Positions 737 through 61,045 of a DNA stretch of 64,000 nucleotides are shown piece after piece. The DNA is from Candidatus Pacearchaeota archaeon (GTDB lineage: Bacteria > Patescibacteriota > Minisyncoccia > Minisyncoccales > UBA5738). A model generated the notes under the pieces. It was not told the DNA's origin. It ran no database searches and saw nothing but the letters and a program-made list of their open reading frames with translations. Position numbers and translations under genes: made by a program. How positions within the stretch are numbered: the stretch's first letter is position 1; each line of letters begins with the position of its first letter. The stretch lies in contig DAOSDI010000002.1 of the NCBI GenBank assembly GCA_035362275.1, positions 2,232-66,231 on the forward strand, given 5' to 3'.

Positions 737-840
737 GTAGCGATATTTCTAGCGATATTAAATATCGCTAAGATTATTTTAGCATAATTTTTGTAGCGAT
801 ATCAAATAGCGATACTTGATAGCGATACTTGATATCGCTA
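737..840. repeat. Cluster of REP-like hairpin half-sites TAGCGATA(T/C)
   Basis: GTAGCGATAT (737-746). Perfect hairpin TAGCGATAT-TAA-ATATCGCTA (750-770). Block GTAGCGATAT-CAA-ATAGCGATA-CTTG-ATAGCGATA-CTTG-ATATCGCTA (793-840). The cluster starts 18 bp upstream of the RAYT start codon. Confidence 0.7.
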
Positions 841-3247: not shown

Positions 3248-4021
3248 CTAATTGTTGAGCGAACTGTTCAAGTAGTAATCAATGGCTTGAGAATAGGTGC
3301 CCGCGGAATATAATTCCCGCACCTTGTTGAGATCAGCCATTTTCTCTTGTGGCAACATTTCCTCTTCGTTTAAATAAACGATCAGCGATTCAATAATCTG
3401 TTTGTCCAAGACCACTTCGGCGCGCGGATCTTCTTCCCCGGCGCCCGGCTCCGCGCCCAGCACGGCATAAACCTGCTTTTCCCTGTCGTCAATTTCTTTC
3501 ATCGCCCGCGCCGCCTGCTTGGCAATCTCGCCGGCCTTCCGGGGATTTTTTTTCACCATCGCGGCCACTTCTTTTTTGGCTTCGGTCTTCGCGGTCTGAT
3601 ACTCGTCCATCGCCGCCGGCAAGTTCCGCGCCAGATTCCGGCGGGAAATAATGTCAATTTCTTCCAGCCGCTTGGCGGCCAGCTGCAGATTCGCCGCGGC
3701 GACATCGCCGCGCCGGACTTGTCCCATCACCATCGCACTTCCTTTTTCCGCGGCTTTTTTCAATCCGTATAGCGGCTCCCCGGGCAACGCATTCTGCGCC
3801 GAAGCCAGCAATCCCCCGCCGGCGCCCGCCGCCAGAATCAATCCGGCCAATGCCGCGCGATATTGAAAAACAAAGCGGCGCAAAAAGATCATCGGCGAGC
3901 TTTTTGCCGCCATCGCTTCCGGCCCCATAATGCGCGTTTTGCACGAAACCACCCAATCGTTATCAGGCGCAATTTCCCGCAAAGTCTTTATTCGGTTGAT
4001 CAATGCTTTTTCGGAGTTCAT
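3248..4021 (-). CDS. Single-pass membrane protein, DUF5667-like; putative anti-sigma partner of the upstream ECF sigma factor
   Basis: TM segment AALAGLILAAGAGGGLLA is followed by LPGEPLYGLKKAAEKG, the motif characteristic of DUF5667. The gene lies directly downstream of the ECF sigma gene. Confidence 0.5.
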   Translation of the reverse strand: MNSEKALINRIKTLREIAPDNDWVVSCKTRIMGPEAMAAKSSPMIFLRRFVFQYRAALAGLILAAGAGGGLLASAQNALPGEPLYGLKKAAEKGSAMVMGQVRRGDVAAANLQLAAKRLEEIDIISRRNLARNLPAAMDEYQTAKTEAKKEVAAMVKKNPRKAGEIAKQAARAMKEIDDREKQVYAVLGAEPGAGEEDPRAEVVLDKQIIESLIVYLNEEEMLPQEKMADLNKVRELYSAGTYSQAIDYYLNSSLNN

Positions 4022-4128
4022 ATTTTTGGGCTCACACTACCGATGACGCAAAATCCGCGAAAATGTTACACTAGACAAAAATTAGCATTAAGGCGCCTAA
4101 GTTTATTCACACTTAAAATTCTTTTGCC

Positions 4129-4167
4129 AGGGTCTAACCCCCGCGATTACACGGGGGATAGACCCTT
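4129..4167. repeat. GGGTCTAACCC-family hairpin (solo copy)
   Basis: AGGGTCTAACCCCCGCG-ATTACA-CGGGGGATAGACCCTT is an imperfect palindrome with the same GGGTCTAACCC / GATAGACCC arms as the elements at 5690 and 60934. Confidence 0.6.
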
Positions 4168-5689: not shown

Positions 5690-5802
5690 AAAATTAAAGG
5701 GGTCTATCCCTCGTTAATGCGAGGGTTGGTCCCTTTTAATTCTGCATTCGGATTCTCTGGGAAGGGTCTAACCCTCGCGAGGACGCGAGGGTTAGACCCT
5801 TA
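5690..5802 (+). repeat. Composite two-hairpin repeat element (GGGTCTAACCC family), full copy
   Basis: Hairpin 1 at 5696-5737, conserved linker TAATTCTGCATTCGGATTCTCTGG, and hairpin 2 GGGTCTAACCCTCGCGAGGACGCGAGGGTTAGACCC at 5761-5802. It is near-identical in architecture to 60934-61045 and, as a partial reverse copy, to 42855-42917. Confidence 0.8.
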
Positions 5803-5821
5803 TCCCCGCGAGTGGTCACCC

Positions 5822-7453: not shown

Positions 7454-10162
7454 TTAAACCGCCACTTTCGCCGGCCGGCGCAAAGTTTGGCGCGCGGGCG
7501 CGATCACAGCAATCTCGTCGTTTTTAACCTCCACCGAAACACGATCCCCTTCCCTGACTTCACCGGAAACGATTTTCAGCGCCAGCGCGTCCAACACCAG
7601 CTTCTGGATCACCCGGCGCAACGGCCGGGCGCCCAGATTGGCGTCAAATCCCCGGCGCGCCAGCAATTCTTTGGCCGCGTCGGCCACCGCCAAACGGATA
7701 TTCTTGGCGGCCAAACGCCGGTCCACTTTTTGCAGTTCCAGATCAACGATCTTTTTGATTTCCGCGGATCCCAAATAGTTGAAGATCACAATCTCGTCCA
7801 CGCGGTTCAAAAATTCGGGACGAAAAGACTCTTTCAGCACCGCCATTACTTTTTCCTGGATTTTTTCTTTGCCGTTATCAACTTCCGGCCGCGCGGAAAA
7901 TCCCAGCGCCGCTTCCTTGGCAATCACATCCGAGCCGATATTGGAAGTCATAATCAAAATCGCGTTCTTAAACGACGCCGTGCGGCCCTTGGCATCGGTC
8001 AAACGGCCGTCTTCCAGAATTTGCAACAAAATATTAAAGACTTCCGGATGGGCTTTTTCAATCTCGTCCAGCAATATCACCGAATAGGGGCGGCGGCGAA
8101 TCTTTTCCGTGAGCTGGCCGCCTTCTTCGTAACCGACATAGCCGGGCGGCGAACCCAAAATCCGCGATACGGTGTGCTTTTCCATATACTCGGACATATC
8201 CAGCCGCACCAGCGCGTTTTCGTCGTTAAACAGAAATCCGGCCAGCGCCTTGGCGGTTTCGGTCTTGCCCACGCCGGTGGGCCCCAAGAACATAAACGAA
8301 CCCAGCGGCCGGTTTTCTTCGGCGATGCCCGCGCGGGCGCGCCGGATCGCGTTGGCAATCGCGCCGATCGCCGCTTCCTGCCCGATCACCCGGCGTTTCA
8401 AAATCTCTTCCAAATTTTGCAGTTTGCGCGCCTCTTCCTCCATCAGCCGCGTCACCGGAATGCCGGTCCAGCGCGACACCACGTTGGCGACGTCTTCTTC
8501 GGTAATCTGCTCTTTGAGGATCGGGCGGCTCTTTTGAAACCGCGCCAATTTTTTTTCCGCGGACTTGAGCTCTTTGATCAGTTGGGGAATTTGACCGTAT
8601 TTCAATTCGGCCACTCGTTGAAGATTCGCTTGCGCCTCTTCTTTCTCCACCTCAAAACGGCTCGCTTCAAGTTCTTTTTTCAGATTCTTGATTTTGCCGA
8701 TCGTTTCTTTTTCGGAGCGCCATTTGGCCTCAACTTCCTGCAATTTTTCGCCCAAGTCGGCCATTTGCCGTTCAATGGCTTTGCGGCGGAGAATGATTTC
8801 CTGGCCACGGTCTTTTTTGATCGCTTCGTATTCCACCTGCAAATGCTGAAGCTCTTTGCGCAATTTTTCCACTTCCGCCGGCTCGGATTCAATGTCCAGC
8901 CGCAGGGCGCTCATCGCTTCGTCCATCAAGTCCACCGCCTTGTCCGGCAGGAACCGGTCGGGAATATAGCGCGACGCCAATTCCACGCACGCGGCCAATC
9001 CCCGCTCGTCAATTTTGACGCCGTGATGCATTTCATATTTTTCTTTCAGTCCCAGCAGGATCATTTTGGCATCTTCCATTGAAGGCTCGGCCACAAACAC
9101 CGGCTGGAAACGCCGTTCCAGCGCCGGATCCTTTTCAATGTATTTTTGGTATTCTTTCAATGTGGTGGCGCCGATAGCTTTCATTTCGCCCCGTGCCAGC
9201 GCCGGCTTAAGCAAATTGGACGCGTCAATCGTGCCGTCGGCGGCGCCGGCGCCCACCAACGTGTGCAATTCGTCAATAAAAAAGATGTACCGGCCGGCGG
9301 CGCGCTCCACCTCGCGTAGCAACGCTTTGATGCGGTCCTCAAACTCGCCGCGATATTTTGTACCGGCGATCAGCGCACCCAGATCAAGAGATATAATTTC
9401 TTTGTCGCGCAGGCTTTCGGGCGCATTTCCCGACGCAATGCGCTGAACCAAACCTTCCACGATCGCGGTTTTACCCACGCCCGCTTCGCCGATCAACACC
9501 GGATTGTTCTTGGTGCGGCGGCTTAAAACCTGCATCAGCCGGCGAATTTCGTTTTCCCGGCCGATCACCGGATCCAATTTCCCTTGTCGGGCCATCGTGG
9601 TCAAATTGCGAGTGTATTTTTCAATCACTTGATATTTGGATTCCGGTTCCGGATCGGTCACGCGCTGGCCGCCGCGGATCTTGGCCAATTCTTTCAGCAC
9701 GGTTTCATAATCAAGCGCCCCAATCTCGGGCGCGGCAAACCCGCCGTCCGCGCGGATGAATTCCACTTTGTCCAGCACTTCCCGCGCCTTGGTGGCGGTG
9801 CCCGCCAACGCCAAAAACAGATGTTCCACCGAAATGAACTCGTCGCCGAACTTGGACGCTTCTTCCCGCGCCCGCTCCAGCACTTTGGCCATATCCTGCG
9901 TCAAATAGAACTGGCCGAAAGCCTGCGGCGCGGCGATCACCGGCAGTCGGGAAAGCGCCCCCATTATCCGCTTGCGCAAATTCTGAACGTCAACGCCCAG
10001 ACGTTCCAGTAAATTCAAAATCAGGCTCTTTTCCTGAGACAAAAGCGCCGCCAGCAAGTGCAGGGCGTCCACCTGTTGCTGGCCCTTTTCCCGCCCCAGA
10101 TCTTGCGCGTAGAGAATCGCTTCCTGCGCCTTATGAGTAAAGTTTGGTGGTTGGTTGATCAT
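7454..10162 (-). CDS. clpB: ATP-dependent chaperone/disaggregase ClpB
   Basis: Clp N domain, two AAA+ modules ([14 protein letters not shown] and [14 protein letters not shown]) and a long coiled-coil middle domain. The ORF-track start at 10180 is TTG, so I use the ATG at 10162 ([15 protein letters not shown]). Confidence 0.95.
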
Positions 10163-10207
10163 AATAAATTTAAAATTCAAAAATCAAAAATCAAAATTAA
10201 GGAAAAA

Positions 10208-10236
10208 ATTATATACCCTGAATTACAAAATAGCAA
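10208..10236 (-). promoter_or_regulatory. Sigma-70-like promoter candidate for clpB
   Basis: The minus strand reads TTGCTA (10236-10231), a 17-nt spacer, then TATAAT (10213-10208). It lies 45 nt upstream of the clpB ATG and 10 bp downstream of the 49-bp palindrome. Confidence 0.4.
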
Positions 10237-10332
10237 TATTGATATTGTAGCGGTATTTGATACCGCTAAAATTTAGCGGTATCAAATACCGCTACGATCC
10301 TAAAAATATTTATTTTGTAATTCAGGATATAT
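10211..10332. repeat. Nested palindromic cassette containing a 49-bp perfect double-hairpin (10247-10295)
   Basis: Inner sequence GTAGCGGTATTTGATACCGCTAAAATTTAGCGGTATCAAATACCGCTAC is a perfect palindrome made of two TAGCGGTAT-N3-ATACCGCTA hairpins. The outer 22-nt inverted repeats ATATACCCTGAATTACAAAATA / TATTTTGTAATTCAGGATATAT match 21/22. Confidence 0.85.
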
Positions 10333-10370
10333 TAAAATTTTCCATTTTGATTTTTTAATTTTTAATTTTT

Positions 10371-11651
10371 TTATCTTTCGCCCAGCGTCGCTTCCAATTC
10401 AATTTCGCCGCCGGCGCGCCGGACTTTCAGCTTTACCTTATCACCCGGATTATATTTTGCAATAACCCGCGCCAAGGAATTTTTTTGGTCCAGTTTTTGG
10501 CCGCCGATTTCCAGAATAATGTCCCCGTCCTTCAACCCGGCGGTTTGCGCGGGAGAACCGGCCATCACAGCGGTGCCGGATTCGCCGGCAGCAATCCACG
10601 CGCCGCGATCCGCCGGCAGATTATTTTCTTTTTGGAGGCGCGCGTCAATCATCGTGTAATAAACACCCAAGTAAGGATAGACGATCTTTCCCGAGGTTTT
10701 AGCCTGCGCCAATCCGCGCTTCGCCAAATTGATCGGAATCACAAATCCCACGTTTTGCGCGCCGCTGGCAATCGCGGTGTTAATGCCGATCACCTCGCCT
10801 TTCAAATTTAATAACGGCCCGCCGGAATTTCCCTCGTTGATGGCCGCATCGGTTTGGATCAAATCCTCCAAAACTTCGTCCTCGCCCGCGCCATAGGCAG
10901 TGATTGACCGTTGCATCCCCGAAATCACACCCACCGACACCGTATTGTCAAATTCTCCCAAGGCGTTGCCGATGGCAATCACGCTTTGGCCGATCTGTAA
11001 ATTGTCGGAATCTCCCAAAGCCACCGCGGGAAACCGCCGCCCGCCGCCGTCGGAGATCTTCACCACCGCAATGTCGTTGACCGGATCGGCCGCCGTCACT
11101 TTGGCCGCATAGCGCTCGCCATCGGACATCACCACGGTATATTGCGCCTGATTATCGCTCACCACGTGCTTGTTGGTTAAAATGGTGCCGTCTTCATCCA
11201 CGATGAATCCCGTGCCGGCGCCGATCTGCCGTTCCTCCGTGCCCCGCTGGCGCAATTGCGGCATCTGGAAGTCCCAGAAATCAAAAGGGTCGGTCCCGCG
11301 CGCATAATATCTTTCATAAACCGGCATATCTTTGGTGATGATGATGGACACCACCGCCGGAGAATAATCCTTGACCGCCTTGACGACCGCCTCTTCCTGT
11401 GAAGTTTGCGGCACATATTCAACCGGCATGTCCGCAGACGGCGTCTCAACGATTTGCGGCGCGAATTTTATCGCCGGCAAGTCAAACCGCTCGGCCAAAG
11501 AATCAAAATCTTGCGAAAACGCCAGCGCTCCCAAGGCAAATCCCGCGATCAGCACCAACATCGCCGGCCAAATGTTTTTTTTGCGATCCTTGCCCATTCC
11601 CAAAAAATTGCTTTTTGACTCCTCTTTTGAGGTGAGATCATACATTGACAT
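10371..11651 (-). CDS. htrA: HtrA/DegP-family serine protease with a C-terminal PDZ domain
   Basis: GTGFIVDEDGTILTNKHVV (His), NDIAVVKI (Asp), GNSGGPLLNLKGEVIGINTAI (Ser), a PDZ-like tail and an N-terminal TM anchor. The ORF-track start at 11684 is TTG inside the repeat, so I use the ATG at 11651 (MSMYDL). Confidence 0.9.
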   Translation of the reverse strand: MSMYDLTSKEESKSNFLGMGKDRKKNIWPAMLVLIAGFALGALAFSQDFDSLAERFDLPAIKFAPQIVETPSADMPVEYVPQTSQEEAVVKAVKDYSPAVVSIIITKDMPVYERYYARGTDPFDFWDFQMPQLRQRGTEERQIGAGTGFIVDEDGTILTNKHVVSDNQAQYTVVMSDGERYAAKVTAADPVNDIAVVKISDGGGRRFPAVALGDSDNLQIGQSVIAIGNALGEFDNTVSVGVISGMQRSITAYGAGEDEVLEDLIQTDAAINEGNSGGPLLNLKGEVIGINTAIASGAQNVGFVIPINLAKRGLAQAKTSGKIVYPYLGVYYTMIDARLQKENNLPADRGAWIAAGESGTAVMAGSPAQTAGLKDGDIILEIGGQKLDQKNSLARVIAKYNPGDKVKLKVRRAGGEIELEATLGER

Positions 11652-11665
11652 AGTATTAAATTGCT

Positions 11666-11790
11666 CTGAATTACAAGACAACAAATATTGGTATCGTAGC
11701 GGTATTTGATACCGCTAAAATTTAGCGGTATCAAATACCGCTACTTCCATACCGCTACTTCCCCGGCAATATTTATTTCGTAATTCAAAG
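11666..11790. repeat. Second copy of the palindromic cassette with the identical 49-bp double-hairpin (11696-11744)
   Basis: The 49-nt inner palindrome is identical base for base to 10247-10295. An extra half-site ATACCGCTAC sits at 11749-11758. The outer arms CTGAATTACAAG / CGTAATTCAAAG are related to those of the first copy. Confidence 0.85.
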
Positions 11791-11839
11791 TAAATTAAAA
11801 ATCTGGGATATTCATTGGAAATTGGTAATTGGAAATTGG

Positions 11840-12832
11840 TTATTTGCGAAACAAGGTTTTGGCTTCTTCCCAAAATTCCGGGCGATCCTTTTTTGCCTTC
11901 ATCCAATACCACCATTCGCCGCCCCACAGATAAAATTCATCCAGTCCGGTGTTCCGGGCAAACGCAACGTTCTCGCGGAACCGGTCGATGTCCATCGTTT
12001 CGGCATCGTTGGCGCCGCCGTCGTATTTTTGGCCGATCGCCCACGGTTCGGCCTGCAATTCAACGCAAACCACCCTCTTTTTGAACAGCAAGCCAACCAA
12101 TTCCGCCTTAAACGCGTAAAACGCCGGCGGCAGAAGATAATCAACATAGATCCCCAATTCGGAAAAATAAACCCGGCGGTACATTGTGATGCCCGCAATA
12201 TCGCCGGCGTTCGCGGCGTTAAACCACCACGATCCTTCCCCGCTATCCGATATTACAACAGGCCTTTTGTTCCCGTCAAGGGATTTGACCAGCGCGATCT
12301 CCTTTTGCAGAAATTTTTCGTCCCGCCAGGGACATTCGCCGAAAGGAAACAACGGCTCGTTTTCCACTTGCCAGAACTCCAGCGCCGGATGATCGCGATA
12401 GCGGATCACCGCGGTTTCCAGCATTGCCAAAACCGCCGTTTGTTGGCGTTCTTTGTCCAGAGCCTTCGCCCACTCCGGAAGATGGCATTCGGGCCAGCGC
12501 GGCGTTTTCATTCCGATCACCAACACCGTTTTGGCGCCGGCGCGCGCCGCTTCGTCCATTTGCCGGTCCAGATCGGAAAAATCATACTCCCCCGGACGGG
12601 GCGCCAGCAAATCCCAATGCGCGGCGATCCGGATCTTCTTGGCGCCCAAATCGTTGAGCAACGCCGAATAGACAACCGGCCAATCCAACCCCAACGCCGC
12701 CGCCTGCTTTTGCGAAAATGAAACGCCCCAAACAACATCCTCCGTTTCCGGCGCCCGCCAGCAATAAAAAATCCCCAACGCGCCCGCCAGCAATAAAATT
12801 AATACTCCCAAAATAGCAAATTTCTTTCGCAT
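11840..12832 (-). CDS. Membrane-anchored glycoside hydrolase, TIM-barrel clan GH-A-like
   Basis: N-terminal TM anchor. WQVENEP contains the NEP acid/base Glu motif typical of GH-A families, and IRIAAHWDLLAPRPGEYDFSDLD is typical of GH5/GH42-like barrels. The ORF-track start at 12847 is TTG, so I use the ATG at 12832. Confidence 0.5.
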   Translation of the reverse strand: MRKKFAILGVLILLLAGALGIFYCWRAPETEDVVWGVSFSQKQAAALGLDWPVVYSALLNDLGAKKIRIAAHWDLLAPRPGEYDFSDLDRQMDEAARAGAKTVLVIGMKTPRWPECHLPEWAKALDKERQQTAVLAMLETAVIRYRDHPALEFWQVENEPLFPFGECPWRDEKFLQKEIALVKSLDGNKRPVVISDSGEGSWWFNAANAGDIAGITMYRRVYFSELGIYVDYLLPPAFYAFKAELVGLLFKKRVVCVELQAEPWAIGQKYDGGANDAETMDIDRFRENVAFARNTGLDEFYLWGGEWWYWMKAKKDRPEFWEEAKTLFRK

Positions 12833-15420: not shown

Positions 15421-15486
15421 AGAAAATCTTTTTTATTAAACTGCCGTTCTTACATCATACCAAAAAAAATTTTATTGCGCCAAAAT

Positions 15487-15509
15487 TTACAGGGGTTCAA
15501 CCCCTGTAA
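15487..15509. repeat. Solo copy of the CAGGGGTTSAACCCCTG palindrome family
   Basis: TTACAGGGGTTCAACCCCTGTAA lies in an intergenic region. The same palindrome occurs as dimers inside nrdG (21640-21688) and tsaD (53988-54039). Confidence 0.8.
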
Positions 15510-15550
15510 TTTGCATTTGCTTTGTGACGGCAAATAATTATTCGCCCTGA

Positions 15551-21338: not shown

Positions 21339-22103
21339 TTAAAAGTCGCGAACGCGGACAAACGGCACATAGGGTTTGATCTTGGCCAGCGCCGCAGTGA
21401 AAAATTCGTCGTCAAAGGGTTTTAATTTTTCAAATTCGGGATCAATGTTGCGCCCGGGTTTGAAATTCTGCAAAAAATATTTGGGAGACCGCCCGGGAAT
21501 ATCCTGCCCGATCCACTTGGCCATCCGGCCGAGATCGTCGGGCGTATGAACCCCGGGCGCAACCGTAGTTCTGAATTCAAAATCAATCCCCCCGTTTTTC
21601 AAAATCTTTAGGCTTTTCTCAACATCATCCACTCTTATCGACAGGGGTCCAACCCCTGTCAAATCTGCAGGGGTCCAACCCCTGTCAGCCCCGGCAAAAA
21701 GCGTCGCGTATCTTTCTTTGGGCAGTTTGATGTCCATGGCCACATAGTCAATCAATTTTTTATCAATCAGTTCTTTTATCATTTGAGGATTTGATCCGTT
21801 GGAATCCAGCTTGATCAAAAATCCCAAATCCTTTATTTTTCGGCAAAATTGGGGCAAGTCCGGATGCAATGTCGGCTCTCCCCCGCAAATGACCACCCCT
21901 TCCAGCAATCCTTGTTTTTCTTTCAAAAATTCCAAAACCTCCGTTTCCGGAATTTGGGGCTGTCGGGCAATCAACTCCGGCAGAACCAACTCCTTGGAAT
22001 AACACCACGGACACCGGAAATTGCACCCGGCCAAAAACACCGTGGCCGCCACATGCCCCGGATAATCAATCAACGTTGTTTTTTGCAGTCCGCAAATCTT
22101 CAT
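21339..22103 (-). CDS. nrdG: Anaerobic ribonucleoside-triphosphate reductase activating protein (radical SAM)
   Basis: MKICGLQKTTLIDYPGHVAATVFLAGCNFRCPWCYS carries the CX3CX2C cluster motif, in an operon context with nrdD. The ORF-track start at 22139 is TTG, so I use the ATG at 22103. Confidence 0.85.
   Translation of the reverse strand: MKICGLQKTTLIDYPGHVAATVFLAGCNFRCPWCYSKELVLPELIARQPQIPETEVLEFLKEKQGLLEGVVICGGEPTLHPDLPQFCRKIKDLGFLIKLDSNGSNPQMIKELIDKKLIDYVAMDIKLPKERYATLFAGADRGWTPADLTGVGPLSIRVDDVEKSLKILKNGGIDFEFRTTVAPGVHTPDDLGRMAKWIGQDIPGRSPKYFLQNFKPGRNIDPEFEKLKPFDDEFFTAALAKIKPYVPFVRVRDF
21640..21688. repeat. Dimer of the CAGGGGTYSRACCCCTG palindrome inserted in frame in nrdG
   Basis: GACAGGGGTCCAACCCCTGTC (21640-21660) and CTGCAGGGGTCCAACCCCTGTCAG (21665-21688), 26 nt apart. 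On the minus strand it is translated as DRGWTPADLTGVGPLS. Confidence 0.85.
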
Positions 22104-42756: not shown

Positions 42757-42854
42757 TGCTTTAATCCATTATCACTTGATTATACCACAAAAATCCCCCT
42801 CCGCAAGAGCAAAAAATTGTAACCGCTCTGGGTATTTGTATTTTAAAGGATTTT

Positions 42855-42917
42855 AAAGGTCTGACCCTCGCGTCCTCGCGAGGGTCAGACCTTTCCCAGA
42901 GAATCCGAATTTCAGCC
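42855..42917 (-). repeat. Partial reverse copy of the composite GGGTCTAACCC-family element (linker plus hairpin 2)
   Basis: The minus strand reads GGCTGAAATTCGGATTCTCTGGGAAAGGTCTGACCCTCGCGAGGACGCGAGGGTCAGACCTTT. Confidence 0.75.
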
Positions 42918-53554: not shown

Positions 53555-54652
53555 TCAAATACTTAAATTTGGTTTAGAAATTAAATCTTGCGGAGTAACA
53601 ACCGCTTGATCGCGGCGAAAAGCAAAATACCCCGCCACTCCGGCCATGGCCGCGTTATCCACCGACAGATCAACCGCCGGCGACAAAAATCTGATTTCCA
53701 ATTCATCGGCCGCTTTTTGCATCGCCTGGCGCAACACCAGATTCGCGCTCACCCCCCCGCCGATAATGATTGACCTGGCGGCAAATTCTTTTGCCGCGCG
53801 GGCGGTTTTGGAAACCAAAACTTCCGCAATCGCCTGCTGGATTTCATAACTCATCGCTTGCAAATATTCCGGCATTTTCTTGGTTTTTTCGGTTTGCTTT
53901 TGGTGAAAATACAAAATTGCGGTTTTCAACCCCGAAAAACTGAAATTATAATTCTTTTGCCCCATCATCGGCCGCGGAAGCTTAACCGTCAGGGGTTCAA
54001 CCCCTGTAAGTTTAACAGGGGTTGAACCCCTGTAAGTTTGGGCGAGTTTGGCGATTTCCGGGCCGCCCGGATAGCCCAGCCCCAAAATCCGGGCCGCTTT
54101 GTCAAAGCACTCGCCCGCCGCATCGTCAACGGTCTGACCCAGCAGTTTATAGTCGCCGATCCCCGTTGCTAAAAACAACAGCGTGTGCCCGCCCGAAACC
54201 ACCAGGCAAATTGCCGGCAGGTAATTTTTCGCGAATTCATCCTCACCAATTCCCAAGGTGAGTAAATTCGCCAAAAAATGCGCTTCCAGATGATTGACGC
54301 CCGCCAGTGGCAGGTTATATTTTTTTGCCAATTTTTGGGCAAAATTTATGCCCGTCCACAAGCAAGGGTCCAATCCCGGACCCTTGGTCACGCCAATGAA
54401 TTTGATTTTGGCAACATCGATTTTTTTTATCGCCTGCTCAAAAACCACCGGCAGATTTTTTTGATGCTCCCGCTTGGCCAAGAACGGATAAACTCCGCCA
54501 TAGCCGGCGTGCAATTCCGTTTGCGAAGAAACGACATTTGATAGCGCCTCGATTTTTTTCAACCTGCCCTTGCCGTCCTCCTTTGCGCGCAAAACGCTCA
54601 CCGAGGTGTCGTCGCAGGAAGTCTCAACGGCAAGAAAATATGTTTCATTCAT
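53555..54652 (-). CDS. tsaD: tRNA N6-adenosine threonylcarbamoyltransferase TsaD
   Basis: LAVETSCDDTSVSVL, GVNHLEAHF, FSFSGLKTA and IIGGGVSANLVLRQ. I use the ATG at 54652 (MNETYFLAVETS). Confidence 0.9.
   Translation of the reverse strand: MNETYFLAVETSCDDTSVSVLRAKEDGKGRLKKIEALSNVVSSQTELHAGYGGVYPFLAKREHQKNLPVVFEQAIKKIDVAKIKFIGVTKGPGLDPCLWTGINFAQKLAKKYNLPLAGVNHLEAHFLANLLTLGIGEDEFAKNYLPAICLVVSGGHTLLFLATGIGDYKLLGQTVDDAAGECFDKAARILGLGYPGGPEIAKLAQTYRGSTPVKLTGVEPLTVKLPRPMMGQKNYNFSFSGLKTAILYFHQKQTEKTKKMPEYLQAMSYEIQQAIAEVLVSKTARAAKEFAARSIIIGGGVSANLVLRQAMQKAADELEIRFLSPAVDLSVDNAAMAGVAGYFAFRRDQAVVTPQDLISKPNLSI
53988..54039. repeat. Dimer of the CAGGGGTTSAACCCCTG palindrome inserted in frame in tsaD
   Basis: GTCAGGGGTTCAACCCCTGTAAGTTT followed by AACAGGGGTTGAACCCCTGTAAGTTT (26-nt period, loop flipped TTCAA/TTGAA). 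On the minus strand it is translated as YRGSTPVKLTGVEPLTVK. Confidence 0.85.
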
Positions 54653-60727: not shown

Positions 60728-60933
60728 TACATTACCTCTTATTTATTTTAAGAACTATTTCTTATTTCTTACCGTTGTTTCGGCGCTGTTCCCTGCCCGC
60801 TCCGAGCGGGTGTTGCCTTTCCTTGGCCGGCGGACGCTCTCCGGCTAAAACTCTCTTTTTTCGCTCCATACTTTTTAATATAATTTTATTGAAAAAATGT
60901 AAAGAGATAAAAGGGTAACTACTCGCTGGTCCC

Positions 60934-61045
60934 AAAATTAAAAGGGTCTAACCCTCGCATTAACGAGGGATAGACCCTTTTAATTTTGAATTCGGATTCT
61001 CTGGAAGGGTCTAACCCTTTTGATTACAAAAGGGTTAGACCCTTA
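60934..61045 (+). repeat. Composite two-hairpin repeat element (GGGTCTAACCC family), full copy
   Basis: AAAATTAAAAGGGTCTAACCCTCGCATTAACGAGGGATAGACCCTTTTAATTTTGAATTCGGATTCTCTGGAAGGGTCTAACCCTTTTGATTACAAAAGGGTTAGACCCTTAA. Hairpin 1 is the reverse complement of hairpin 1 at 5696-5737. Confidence 0.8.

Follow-up and report, generated by a model that had tools for sequence, protein, structure and literature searches.

REPIN-type palindromic elements and a likely cognate RAYT-like transposase in a Nealsonbacteria-like genome of the Patescibacteria

Introduction

In the 64-kb stretch of DNA analyzed in this work (referred to below as the window), two copies of a 49-bp palindrome bracket the htrA gene, and one of them also precedes clpB. 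This arrangement raises the question of whether the palindromes are control sites of these two genes or mobile repeats. Both answers were contained in the original prediction, which read them either as BIME-like REP doublets mobilised by a RAYT at the start of the window or as an operator that the genes of a proteostasis regulon have in common. The REPINs or BIMEs and their RAYT/TnpAREP transposases have been described previously (Bertels and Rainey, 2011, PMC3116915; Ton-Hoang/Messing, 2012, PMC3479197; Quentin, 2018, PMC6006769), and a survey of the GTAG REP superfamily took in eight phyla, mostly Proteobacteria (Di Nocera et al., 2013, PMC3733652). The host examined here belongs to the Patescibacteria and has a Nealsonbacteria-like genome; when the literature was searched for RAYT or REP in this group (Patescibacteria/CPR), only false or irrelevant matches came up.

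Structure of the Repeated Element

The 49-mer is present at both of the positions originally claimed for it (Table 1), and its two copies show no mismatch, where no such repeat was expected from 100 shuffles. It had been called a perfect palindrome, which is correct for the two arms (24/24 positions) but not for the central base, where the reverse strand has the one mismatch that is unavoidable in a sequence of odd length (24+1+24). Each core is comprised of four half-sites, TAGCGGTAT, in alternating orientation, and these form two hairpins with 9-bp stems and loops of TTG and CAA that are separated by 5 nt. The hairpin unit, GTAGCGGTAT-TTG-ATACCGCTA, is a short palindrome with a GT[AG]G foot of the kind by which REPs, units of 20–40 bp, are recognized. 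GTAG is located at the outer end of each unit, with its TAG paired with CTA inside the stem, and the two units are joined tail to tail. A second variant of the core was also seen in which both inner half-sites are altered together and the 24-bp long palindrome is kept, a case of covariation.

The cassettes of about 120 bp with related outer inverted repeats, which were part of the original prediction, are real and constitute imperfect palindromes of ~120–130 nt. Within the 64-kb window the outer repeats, CTGAATTACAAAATA, adjoin the two cores only, and across loci the outer arms exhibit compensated changes from A/T to G/C. The formation of one long hairpin by two inverted units, which is expected of REPs and REPINs, was observed in the palindrome of the core and in the computed folds of the whole cassettes, with cassette 1 (10208–10335) giving a single long hairpin of −43.8 kcal/mol (z = −14.7) and cassette 2 (11655–11795) one of −34.7 kcal/mol (z = −9.7). 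An Rfam search yielded just sub-threshold, generic long-hairpin matches to plant miRNA precursors. A solo half-site is also found beside the core of copy 2.

Table 1. Positions of the repeated elements and associated genes within the window.
Feature	Position	Strand	Evidence
REP doublet core, copy 1	10247..10295		Exact 49-mer, half-site structure
Full cassette 1, ~122 nt, arms TATATACCCTGAATTAC.../...GTAATTCAGGATATAT + core	10211..10332		Fold, L009 match
REP doublet core, copy 2	11696..11744		Exact 49-mer
Full cassette 2, ~133 nt, including solo half-site 11749–11757	11661..11793		Fold, relatives
Promoter-like TTGCTA-N17-TATAAT, aimed at clpB	10208..10236	-	10/12 consensus match
RAYT-like Y1 (HUH-Tyr) transposase gene P0001, 239 aa	3..719	-	Pfam, motifs, Foldseek
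REP array, variant half-site TAGCGATAT, GTAGCGATAT motifs	737..840		Perfect hairpin 750–770
htrA, bracketed by both copies	10371..11651	-	Trypsin_2 + PDZ domains (Pfam)
clpB, downstream of cassette 1	7454..10162	-	Clp_N, two AAA, ClpB_D2-small (Pfam)

With the gene calls confirmed by Pfam, the claimed placement of one copy before htrA and of the other between htrA and clpB was borne out. Since both genes are read from the minus strand, the copy beginning at 11696 is the one upstream of htrA; its cassette lies in the spacer that separates the stop codon of a GH42-like gene from the start of htrA, and cassette 1 in the spacer that separates the stop codon of htrA from the start of clpB.

Distribution of the Element Across Loci and Strains

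When one genome per GTDB species was scanned, the half-site doublet was found only in Patescibacteria UBA6102, where it occurs in the rpoC/ftsK interval and in the amino-acid permease/Na/Ca exchanger interval. A metagenome scan revealed further loci of the core, at FAD oxidoreductase/ATP synthase beta, a DUF1554 secreted protein, a T4SS-coupling-type ATPase and a convergent surface-protein/CDP-alcohol transferase pair. Every copy found is intergenic and most of them are located after the stop of one gene and before the start of a co-directional one, with one case between convergent genes. Within the window, the contigs and the MAG covered here, the number of copies is low, with two dispersed in 64 kb, two in the UBA6102 MAG and ~8 distinct loci overall. 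A phage origin was rejected, as viral contigs gave no matches. Seven matches to a single half-site in unrelated phyla, from the genome scan, were treated as chance because about nine were expected by a rough estimate, and another locus (L015), which matches the degenerate pattern but is a tandem repeat unrelated to the element, was set aside.

Comparison of orthologous sites shows the presence/absence polymorphism that is expected of mobile REPs and REPINs. Cassette 1 is missing, with alignable flanks, from a strain of 96.5% nucleotide identity to the window (L020) and from all four other orthologous loci, viz. L037 and L038 (HtrA 91% identical) and L039 and L041 (72–73%). Cassette 2 was found in L010, L020, and L037, and is missing in L039 and L041, although the start region of htrA is conserved in these. 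In L037 one orthologous copy is represented by a run of Ns. An exact insertion junction or target duplication could not be defined for cassette 1, because the DNA around it is AT-rich and varies from strain to strain. Over 122 nt, cassette 1 shares 94% identity with a copy at the Na/Ca-exchanger locus of a relative (L009), versus 75% with cassette 2. The identity of the two cores with diverged flanks had been ascribed to either recent spread or strong selection; recent spread explains it better, the flanks having diverged because the two copies represent different sub-lineages of the element.

These observations bear directly upon the proposal that the 49-mer is a shared operator through which an unknown repressor or activator controls a proteostasis regulon (clpB, htrA, and a trypsin-like gene) in a manner similar to CIRCE/HrcA or CtsR. 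The presence of identical dyad-symmetric sites just upstream of promoter-like hexamers at two adjacent stress genes speaks for such a function, and the four-fold layout of half-sites, together with extra solo half-sites, resembles protein-binding sites. However, a heat-shock operator should be conserved at orthologous chaperone and protease genes and confined to its regulon, whereas the clpB copy is absent from the 96.5%-identical strain and the four other orthologous loci, the htrA copy is absent at 72–73% HtrA identity, and the same core is found by ftsK, the Na/Ca exchanger, the FAD oxidoreductase, secreted proteins and the T4SS-type ATPase, and once between convergent genes. Additionally, no regulator gene is associated with it, and hairpins of the same family lie on either side of a transposase gene (see below). 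CIRCE has the sequence TTAGCACTC-N9-GAGTGCTAA. The CIRCE/HrcA and CtsR systems likewise have inverted or direct repeats before chaperone and protease genes, but there is no sequence similarity to the 49-mer, which differs from them also in being unconserved at orthologous promoters and in occurring beside unrelated genes. Based upon the orthologous loci and the neighbors of the other copies, we have rejected the operator, which we regard as very unlikely; it fails on the terms that the original prediction had set for it, because copies are found beside unrelated genes and are unconserved upstream of clpB or htrA in relatives.

The outer arms allow another interpretation, in which the ~122-nt unit with ends TATATACCCTGAATTAC... 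is a MITE of the TIR type that a DDE transposase mobilises through these arms, with the double hairpin as cargo and no link to a Y1 enzyme. Cassette 1 and the L009/L013 copy are alike over the whole 122 nt including their ends, the arms are inverted repeats with TA-rich ends, and at the cassette 2 site L038 has the arms around a different core, which indicates that arms and core are separable. However, many copies lack one or both arms (L012/L014, L018, L021, and L019), and it is the core that is the most widely distributed and conserved part. The Y1 gene described below is flanked by the core family and not by the arms, and no DDE transposase with matching TIRs was seen in the window or any of the loci. 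A MITE of this kind is considered very unlikely.

Promoter-Like and Terminator-Like Signals

The original prediction pointed to a good promoter-like sequence 10 bp from the core. The hexamers TTGCTA-N17-TATAAT are indeed present, with the claimed spacing, in the outer arm or end of cassette 1, and the L009/L013 element carries the same hexamers (TTGCTA-N17-TATAAA) followed 5 nt on by an ATG. Nevertheless, five promoter-like matches in the region versus 2.9 ± 1.5 in shuffled sequences do not exceed the background, and the sequence is therefore not significant by itself.

The copies could also be structural elements (an intercistronic terminator, an mRNA-stabilising hairpin or an insulator) that are selected by the host and spread by recombination or gene conversion. 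Consistent with this, all copies are intergenic and mostly placed after a stop and before a start of co-directional genes, on the gene strand the outer stem leads into a T-run, and the htrA-clpB spacer of relatives has a small AT-rich, terminator-like hairpin where cassette 1 sits here. However, an intrinsic terminator scan (10100–11900) called none, the occurrence of identical elements at non-homologous loci requires a copying mechanism, and neither the link to a Y1 transposase nor the presence of family-specific hairpins around its homologues is explained. Such a role is compatible with, and secondary to, a REPIN origin of the copies; as an explanation in its own right it has very little probability.

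The Y1 Transposase Gene and its Flanking Hairpins

The gene at the start of the window encodes a protein (P0001) and is cut off at the left edge just short of its stop codon; the full gene with both flanks is available in another locus (L027, from the MAG GCA_964462975.1). P0001 is assigned to Y1_Tnp by Pfam (27.6 bits, cutoff 23), and it has the Y1 HUH-Tyr nuclease core expected of the RAYT/TnpAREP proteins, with N89-H90-x-H92 and Y150-x-Q152-x2-N155 invariant among 25 homologues. By contrast, its score with the NCBIfam model NF047646 (REP_Tyr_transpos) is only 23.5 bits versus a cutoff of 80, which places P0001 outside this family and indicates that it is a divergent clade and not the Proteobacterial equivalog. 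A search of PDB sequences with P0001 alone gave no match and with a profile it gave at best ISDra2 TnpA (E = 0.15); since neither was significant, comparison of structures was needed. For an AF2 model (pLDDT 86.5), the best Foldseek match was 4er8_A (E 1.3e-4, target TM-score 0.65), which is the REP-associated transposase of E. coli in a RAYT-REP complex. It ranked ahead of the ISDra2 and IS608 TnpA proteins, and the predicted fold is hence nearer to TnpAREP than to IS200/IS605 TnpA, as expected of a RAYT, by a modest margin. For the Y1 proteins of ~240 aa in Patescibacteria, 677 homologues at E <= 1e-5 were counted among 1005 scored candidates.

At its 5' end the P0001 gene is directly adjoined by the GTAG-tagged REP array (Table 1), and its 3' flank contains the hairpin GTAGCGATATCAAATATCGCTA (L027, 3716–3752). 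The GTAGCGATAT hairpins at both flanks have their GTAG heads pointing toward the gene. The variant array was absent from the original prediction. The flanking half-site, TAGCGATAT, differs from the dispersed TAGCGGTAT at one compensated stem position, which has A instead of G. The gene is thus flanked within ±1 kb by the dispersed REP family, which is the arrangement of a REPtron, with a difference of one position; due to this difference, a second RAYT, encoded at some other place in the genome, could be the true cognate enzyme. We consider P0001 the likely cognate enzyme of the dispersed doublets.

As is expected of RAYT lineages, the homologues have REPs of their own. Of seven homologues that were examined, six have hairpins on either side that are their own and unrelated, at least four of these being double hairpins of the same layout, and distinct hairpins were observed at the L012 homologue, P0004, P0113, P0008, and P0059. 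The closed genome CP092821.1 of Ca. Nealsonbacteria likewise carries a REP of its own. P0001 and P0004 are 64% identical and occupy the same chromosomal position with different REPs, while their neighbors are orthologous and 38–44% identical; this synteny supports a probable vertical descent of the transposase.

Relationship to Known Systems

The system resembles REPINs and RAYTs in its GTAG-tagged extragenic palindromes, inverted pairs of which form one long hairpin, in a Y1 HUH-Tyr gene that has repeats of the same family on its flanks (REPtron), in the possession of its own REP by each transposase homologue, in the conserved chromosomal position of the transposase and in copies that are polymorphic between strains. 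It differs in its host, a member of the Patescibacteria with a small genome, and in the few copies seen here versus tens to hundreds in classical REPIN populations. The spacer is 5 nt versus 20–100 bp in most REP dimers, the TAG of the tag is paired whereas it is unpaired in canonical E. coli REPs, and P0001, of ~240 aa, has an extra C-terminal helical region and the low score on the curated model noted above. The GTAG REP superfamily includes families with very short spacers of 1–2 bp (Di Nocera et al., 2013, PMC3733652), and it shares with the present element the GTAG at the outer hairpin ends, dimers that fold separately or as one large stem-loop, and the occurrence of homodimers as well as heterodimers, the second core variant of the present element being heterodimer-like. 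The location of the tag partly within the stem is a difference, and the TAGCGGTAT family was not found among the families of this survey that were checked. The IS200/IS605 TnpA proteins (IS608, ISDra2) share the HUH-Tyr fold, being the second-best structural matches to P0001, and recognize single-strand DNA hairpins, as P0001 may by analogy. However, the P0001 gene is not within a mobile unit that is repeated along with it, it is syntenic between relatives, and the hairpins here are dispersed alone.

Discussion

The 49-mers are, with high probability, REP doublets within a REPIN-type element of ~120–130 nt, which is non-autonomous and has P0001 as its likely cognate enzyme. The first reading of the original prediction is thereby supported by the hairpin family flanking the transposase gene and its TnpAREP-like fold, as well as by the double hairpins of the homologues, the strain polymorphism and the unrelated genes neighboring other copies. 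By analogy with E. coli TnpAREP and IS200/IS605, the element would fold into a hairpin on single-stranded DNA, the transposase would recognize this hairpin together with its GTAG foot, and cutting and rejoining via a covalent 5'-phosphotyrosine link would lead to excision and intergenic insertion. That the copies stand before htrA and clpB is most likely incidental. In this spacer cassette 1 replaces the small terminator-like hairpin of relatives and, speculatively, may serve secondarily as a hairpin at the 3' end of htrA with an outward promoter-like sequence.

The system is of a known kind and is found here in a bacterium of the candidate phyla. It is conceivable, though we hold it doubtful, that the ~240-aa Y1 proteins of Patescibacteria form an undescribed subclass of RAYT. 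Such a subclass would be distinguished by a C-terminal helical extension, by REPs that are compact double hairpins, joined tail to tail and with a conserved center rich in A/T, and by domesticated, syntenic genes with full replacement of REP specificity between orthologues of 64% identity. Certain copies, cassette 1 among them, might have been recruited as an insulator, made up of a hairpin and a promoter, in the htrA-clpB spacer.

For genome annotation, these results mean that such palindromes break assemblies, as in the run of Ns in L037, and can mimic regulatory sites. The attractive but mistaken idea that a candidate-phyla bacterium has a novel heat-shock operator here is set aside. Systems of the REPIN-RAYT type have been examined almost exclusively in Proteobacteria; in Patescibacteria, whose genomes are tiny, several families of them exist in parallel, and their syntenic transposase orthologues with wholly different cognate hairpins provide a compact case of co-evolution between a transposase and its target.

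Structure of the 49-bp Palindrome and Its Gene Setting

The original prediction described a 49-nt palindrome present in two identical copies, and both copies of GTAGCGGTATTTGATACCGCTAAAATTTAGCGGTATCAAATACCGCTAC were recovered in the window without mismatch, where chance expectation is none. The sequence is a 24+1+24 palindrome, the central base being the sole difference from its own reverse complement. It consists of four TAGCGGTAT half-sites of alternating orientation, which form two 9-bp hairpins (loops TTG and CAA) with a 5-nt spacer. The related outer inverted repeats reported around each copy (CTGAATTACAAAATA) are also present, and within the window they were found only beside these two cores. 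As a single strand, each cassette folds into one long hairpin.

The placement of the copies upstream of htrA and between htrA and clpB was confirmed by Pfam-supported gene calls: with both genes read from the minus strand, cassette 2 precedes htrA, and cassette 1 separates the htrA stop from the clpB start. The hexamers of the clpB-directed promoter-like sequence are present as described, but matches of this kind in the AT-rich stretch (5) show no excess over shuffled sequences (2.9 +/- 1.5). At htrA, a -10-like hexamer ends 1-2 nt ahead of the first ATG, in a start context (ATATGTCAATGTATGATC) that is conserved in orthologues, and translation may begin at the second ATG of a leaderless mRNA. 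Similarly, at the Na/Ca-exchanger copy of the element, TATAAA lies 5 nt ahead of the ATG of the exchanger gene.

Coordinates of the features in the window and in related contigs (L numbers)
Feature	Location	Strand	Remark
P0001 gene, 239 aa	3-719	minus	Pfam Y1_Tnp above cutoff
TAGCGATAT hairpin cluster	737-840
AGGGTCTAACCCTCGCG...CGCGAGGGTTAGACCCT palindrome family	4118-4167, 5690-5804, 42845-42910, 60914-61044
Trypsin_2-domain protein, 231 aa	6754-7449	minus	directly downstream of clpB
clpB	10162->7454	minus	Pfam
TTGCTA-N17-TATAAT	10236..10208	minus	promoter-like match
Cassette 1 (REPIN)	10211-10332
Cassette 1, folded strand	10208-10335		-43.8 kcal/mol, z = -14.7
49-mer copies	10247-10295, 11696-11744
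htrA	11651->10371	minus	Pfam
htrA start context	11630-11660	minus
Cassette 2	11661-11793
Cassette 2, folded strand	11655-11795		-34.7 kcal/mol, z = -9.7
Single TAGCGGTAT half-site	11749-11757
CAGGGGTYCAACCCCTG doublets	15478-15512, 21638-21690, 53986-54044
CAGGGGTYCAACCCCTG family	L012, 668-723 and 1424-1479		both sides of RAYT homologue
GTTGAAATTTTTTGCAAAAAATTTCAAC	L037, 4778-4877; L041, 4763-4865		htrA-clpB spacer
GATTTAAATTTTGCAGAACAGAAATTAAATC	L020, 7600-7720		htrA-clpB spacer
GTCGCGGCAATGCCGC... core	L038, 255-350		within cassette 2 arms
N run	L037, ~3405-3435		centre of cassette 2
Orthologous palindromes	L012, 8973-9019; L014, 1725-1771		differ at central base

In a second core variant from another species, both inner half-sites are altered jointly (ATACCGCTA...TAGCGGTAT to ATATCGCTA...TAGCGATAT), such that the 24-bp long palindrome stays perfect and a G:T mismatch enters each small hairpin. 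The outer arms also carry compensated changes (ACAAAAT/ATTTTGT, ACGAAAT/ATTTCGT, GCGAAAT/ATTTCGC), and these patterns of substitution fit an element whose folded form matters. Orthologous palindromes in two contigs that are 99% identical (L012 and L014) read AAATTTT and AAAATTT in gene orientation, a difference explained by either a single substitution or an inversion of the palindrome.

The Transposase Gene and Its Flanking Hairpins

The minus-strand gene at the window start encodes P0001, in which the HuH motif (N89-H90-x-H92) and the Tyr motif (Y150-x-Q152-x2-N155) are invariant across 25 aligned homologues. PDB sequence searches with P0001 gave no significant match. The best structural match of its AlphaFold model (pLDDT 86.5) was 4er8_A, a complex of the E. 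coli REP-associated tyrosine transposase with a REP hairpin (E 1.3e-4, target TM-score 0.65), with IS200/IS605 transposases ranking behind it. P0001 is thus predicted to be a Y1 HUH-Tyr enzyme. Against the NCBI curated RAYT model, which is Proteobacterial, it scores 23.5 bits (cutoff 80); it falls outside that model and therefore represents a divergent clade.

A cluster of hairpins with the half-site TAGCGATAT, a compensated G-to-A stem change relative to the core motif, directly adjoins the start of this gene. In L027, a related contig carrying the complete gene, GTAGCGATATCAAATATCGCTA lies immediately 3' of the gene end and the stop codon is inside the GTAG of this hairpin. Hairpins of this family thus lie on either side of the transposase gene, their GTAG heads pointing to it, the arrangement named REPtron (PMC6006769). 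Two findings weaken the reading of the cassettes as TIR-MITEs: the outer arms are missing from many copies, and it is the core, rather than the arms, that flanks the transposase gene.

The original prediction of REP doublets with a RAYT was right as regards flanking hairpins, nearest fold and REP-doublet features: the 49-mer elements are very probably REP doublets (REPINs) with an associated RAYT-like transposase, and, copy number aside, membership in the curated model is the only defining feature tested that is lacking. By analogy with E. coli TnpAREP and IS200/IS605 (PMC3479197, PMC6006769), the transposase would recognise the hairpin and GTAG on single-stranded DNA, cleave, and rejoin the ends via a phosphotyrosine link. 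A purely structural role in the host could only be secondary.

Distribution and Orthologous Loci

When one genome of each GTDB species was searched for the half-site hairpin, Patescibacteria bacterium UBA6102 alone had doublets; one of its two copies lies in the rpoC-ftsK spacer, and the other separates an amino-acid permease gene from a Na/Ca exchanger gene. The remaining 7 matches were single hairpins from unrelated phyla, against about 9 expected by chance by our rough estimate. In metagenomes the doublet pattern matched 15 loci, of which one is an unrelated tandem repeat and others are orthologous to loci already named. Further copies lie between ATP synthase beta and an FAD oxidoreductase, ahead of a DUF1554 secreted protein, ahead of a T4SS-coupling-type ATPase, and between convergent genes for a surface protein and a CDP-alcohol phosphatidyltransferase; no chaperone or protease is among the neighbours at these four positions. 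The element was not found in viral contigs, Rfam holds no family for it, and no account of REP or RAYT from Patescibacteria turned up in the literature searched.

The gene order DUF6938, 304-aa protein, GH42-like, htrA, clpB and trypsin-like is kept in relatives whose HtrA is as little as 72% identical; the Trypsin_2 gene 3' of clpB is syntenic in all relatives examined (L038, L039, L041). Cassette 1 is absent from L020, whose DNA is 96.5% identical to the window over 5 kb and which has cassette 2, and likewise from L037 and L038 (HtrA 91%) and from L039 and L041 (72-73%). In these relatives its site is occupied by other small AT-rich palindromes, and the flank downstream can be aligned. Cassette 2 was found in L010, L020 and L037, and not in L039 or L041; its counterpart in L038 has the outer arms around a different, shorter core, and therefore arms and core can decay or be exchanged independently. 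In all of these contigs the htrA start region is conserved, the -10-like hexamer included. Both the neighbours of the mapped copies (ftsK, Na/Ca exchanger and others) and the absence of cassette 1 from these orthologous spacers argue against the alternative prediction of a shared proteostasis operator, which is rejected on the test that the prediction itself had set.

Over 122 nt, cassette 1 shares 94% identity with the Na/Ca-exchanger copy of a UBA6102-like genome; its identity to cassette 2 is only 75%. These identities mark it as a recent copy of a full-length element and not a duplicate of the neighbouring cassette 2. The palindrome in the htrA-clpB spacer varies by lineage, and the spacer looks like a hotspot of hairpin elements replacing one another. 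The public L037 sequence has a stretch of N at the centre of cassette 2, and several contigs break off close to these repeats; the palindromes disturb assembly.

Related Transposases and Their REPs

Other P0001 homologues are accompanied by different hairpins. The L012 homologue (34% identical) has the double hairpin CAGGGGTCCAACCCCTGTCAAATTTACAGGGGTTGGACCCCTG on both sides, with the same layout and A/T centre as the 49-mer core family, and the CAGGGGTCCAACCCCTGTCAAATTTACAGGGGTTGGACCCCTG family is also dispersed within the window. P0004 (64% identical) is flanked by GGAAGGACTAAGTCCTTCC doublets and P0113, from a closed Ca. Nealsonbacteria genome, by CGAAGGTCTAACCTTCG repeats; P0008 and P0059 have their own hairpins on both sides and P0058 on the 3' side only. 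P0001 and P0004 sit between orthologous neighbours that, at 38-44% identity, are less conserved than the transposases themselves, a comparison which indicates that the transposase gene would have been inherited vertically while its REP turned over.

A third palindromic family in the window (AGGGTCTAACCCTCGCG...CGCGAGGGTTAGACCCT) is intergenic, some copies having AAAATTAAA outer arms. The 49-bp feature is real and belongs to the already known REPIN-RAYT kind. Additionally, a second double-hairpin family (CAGGGGTYCAACCCCTG, with an AAATTT-like centre) occurs in the window and flanks another RAYT homologue in L012, and therefore several REPIN-RAYT families probably coexist in these genomes.
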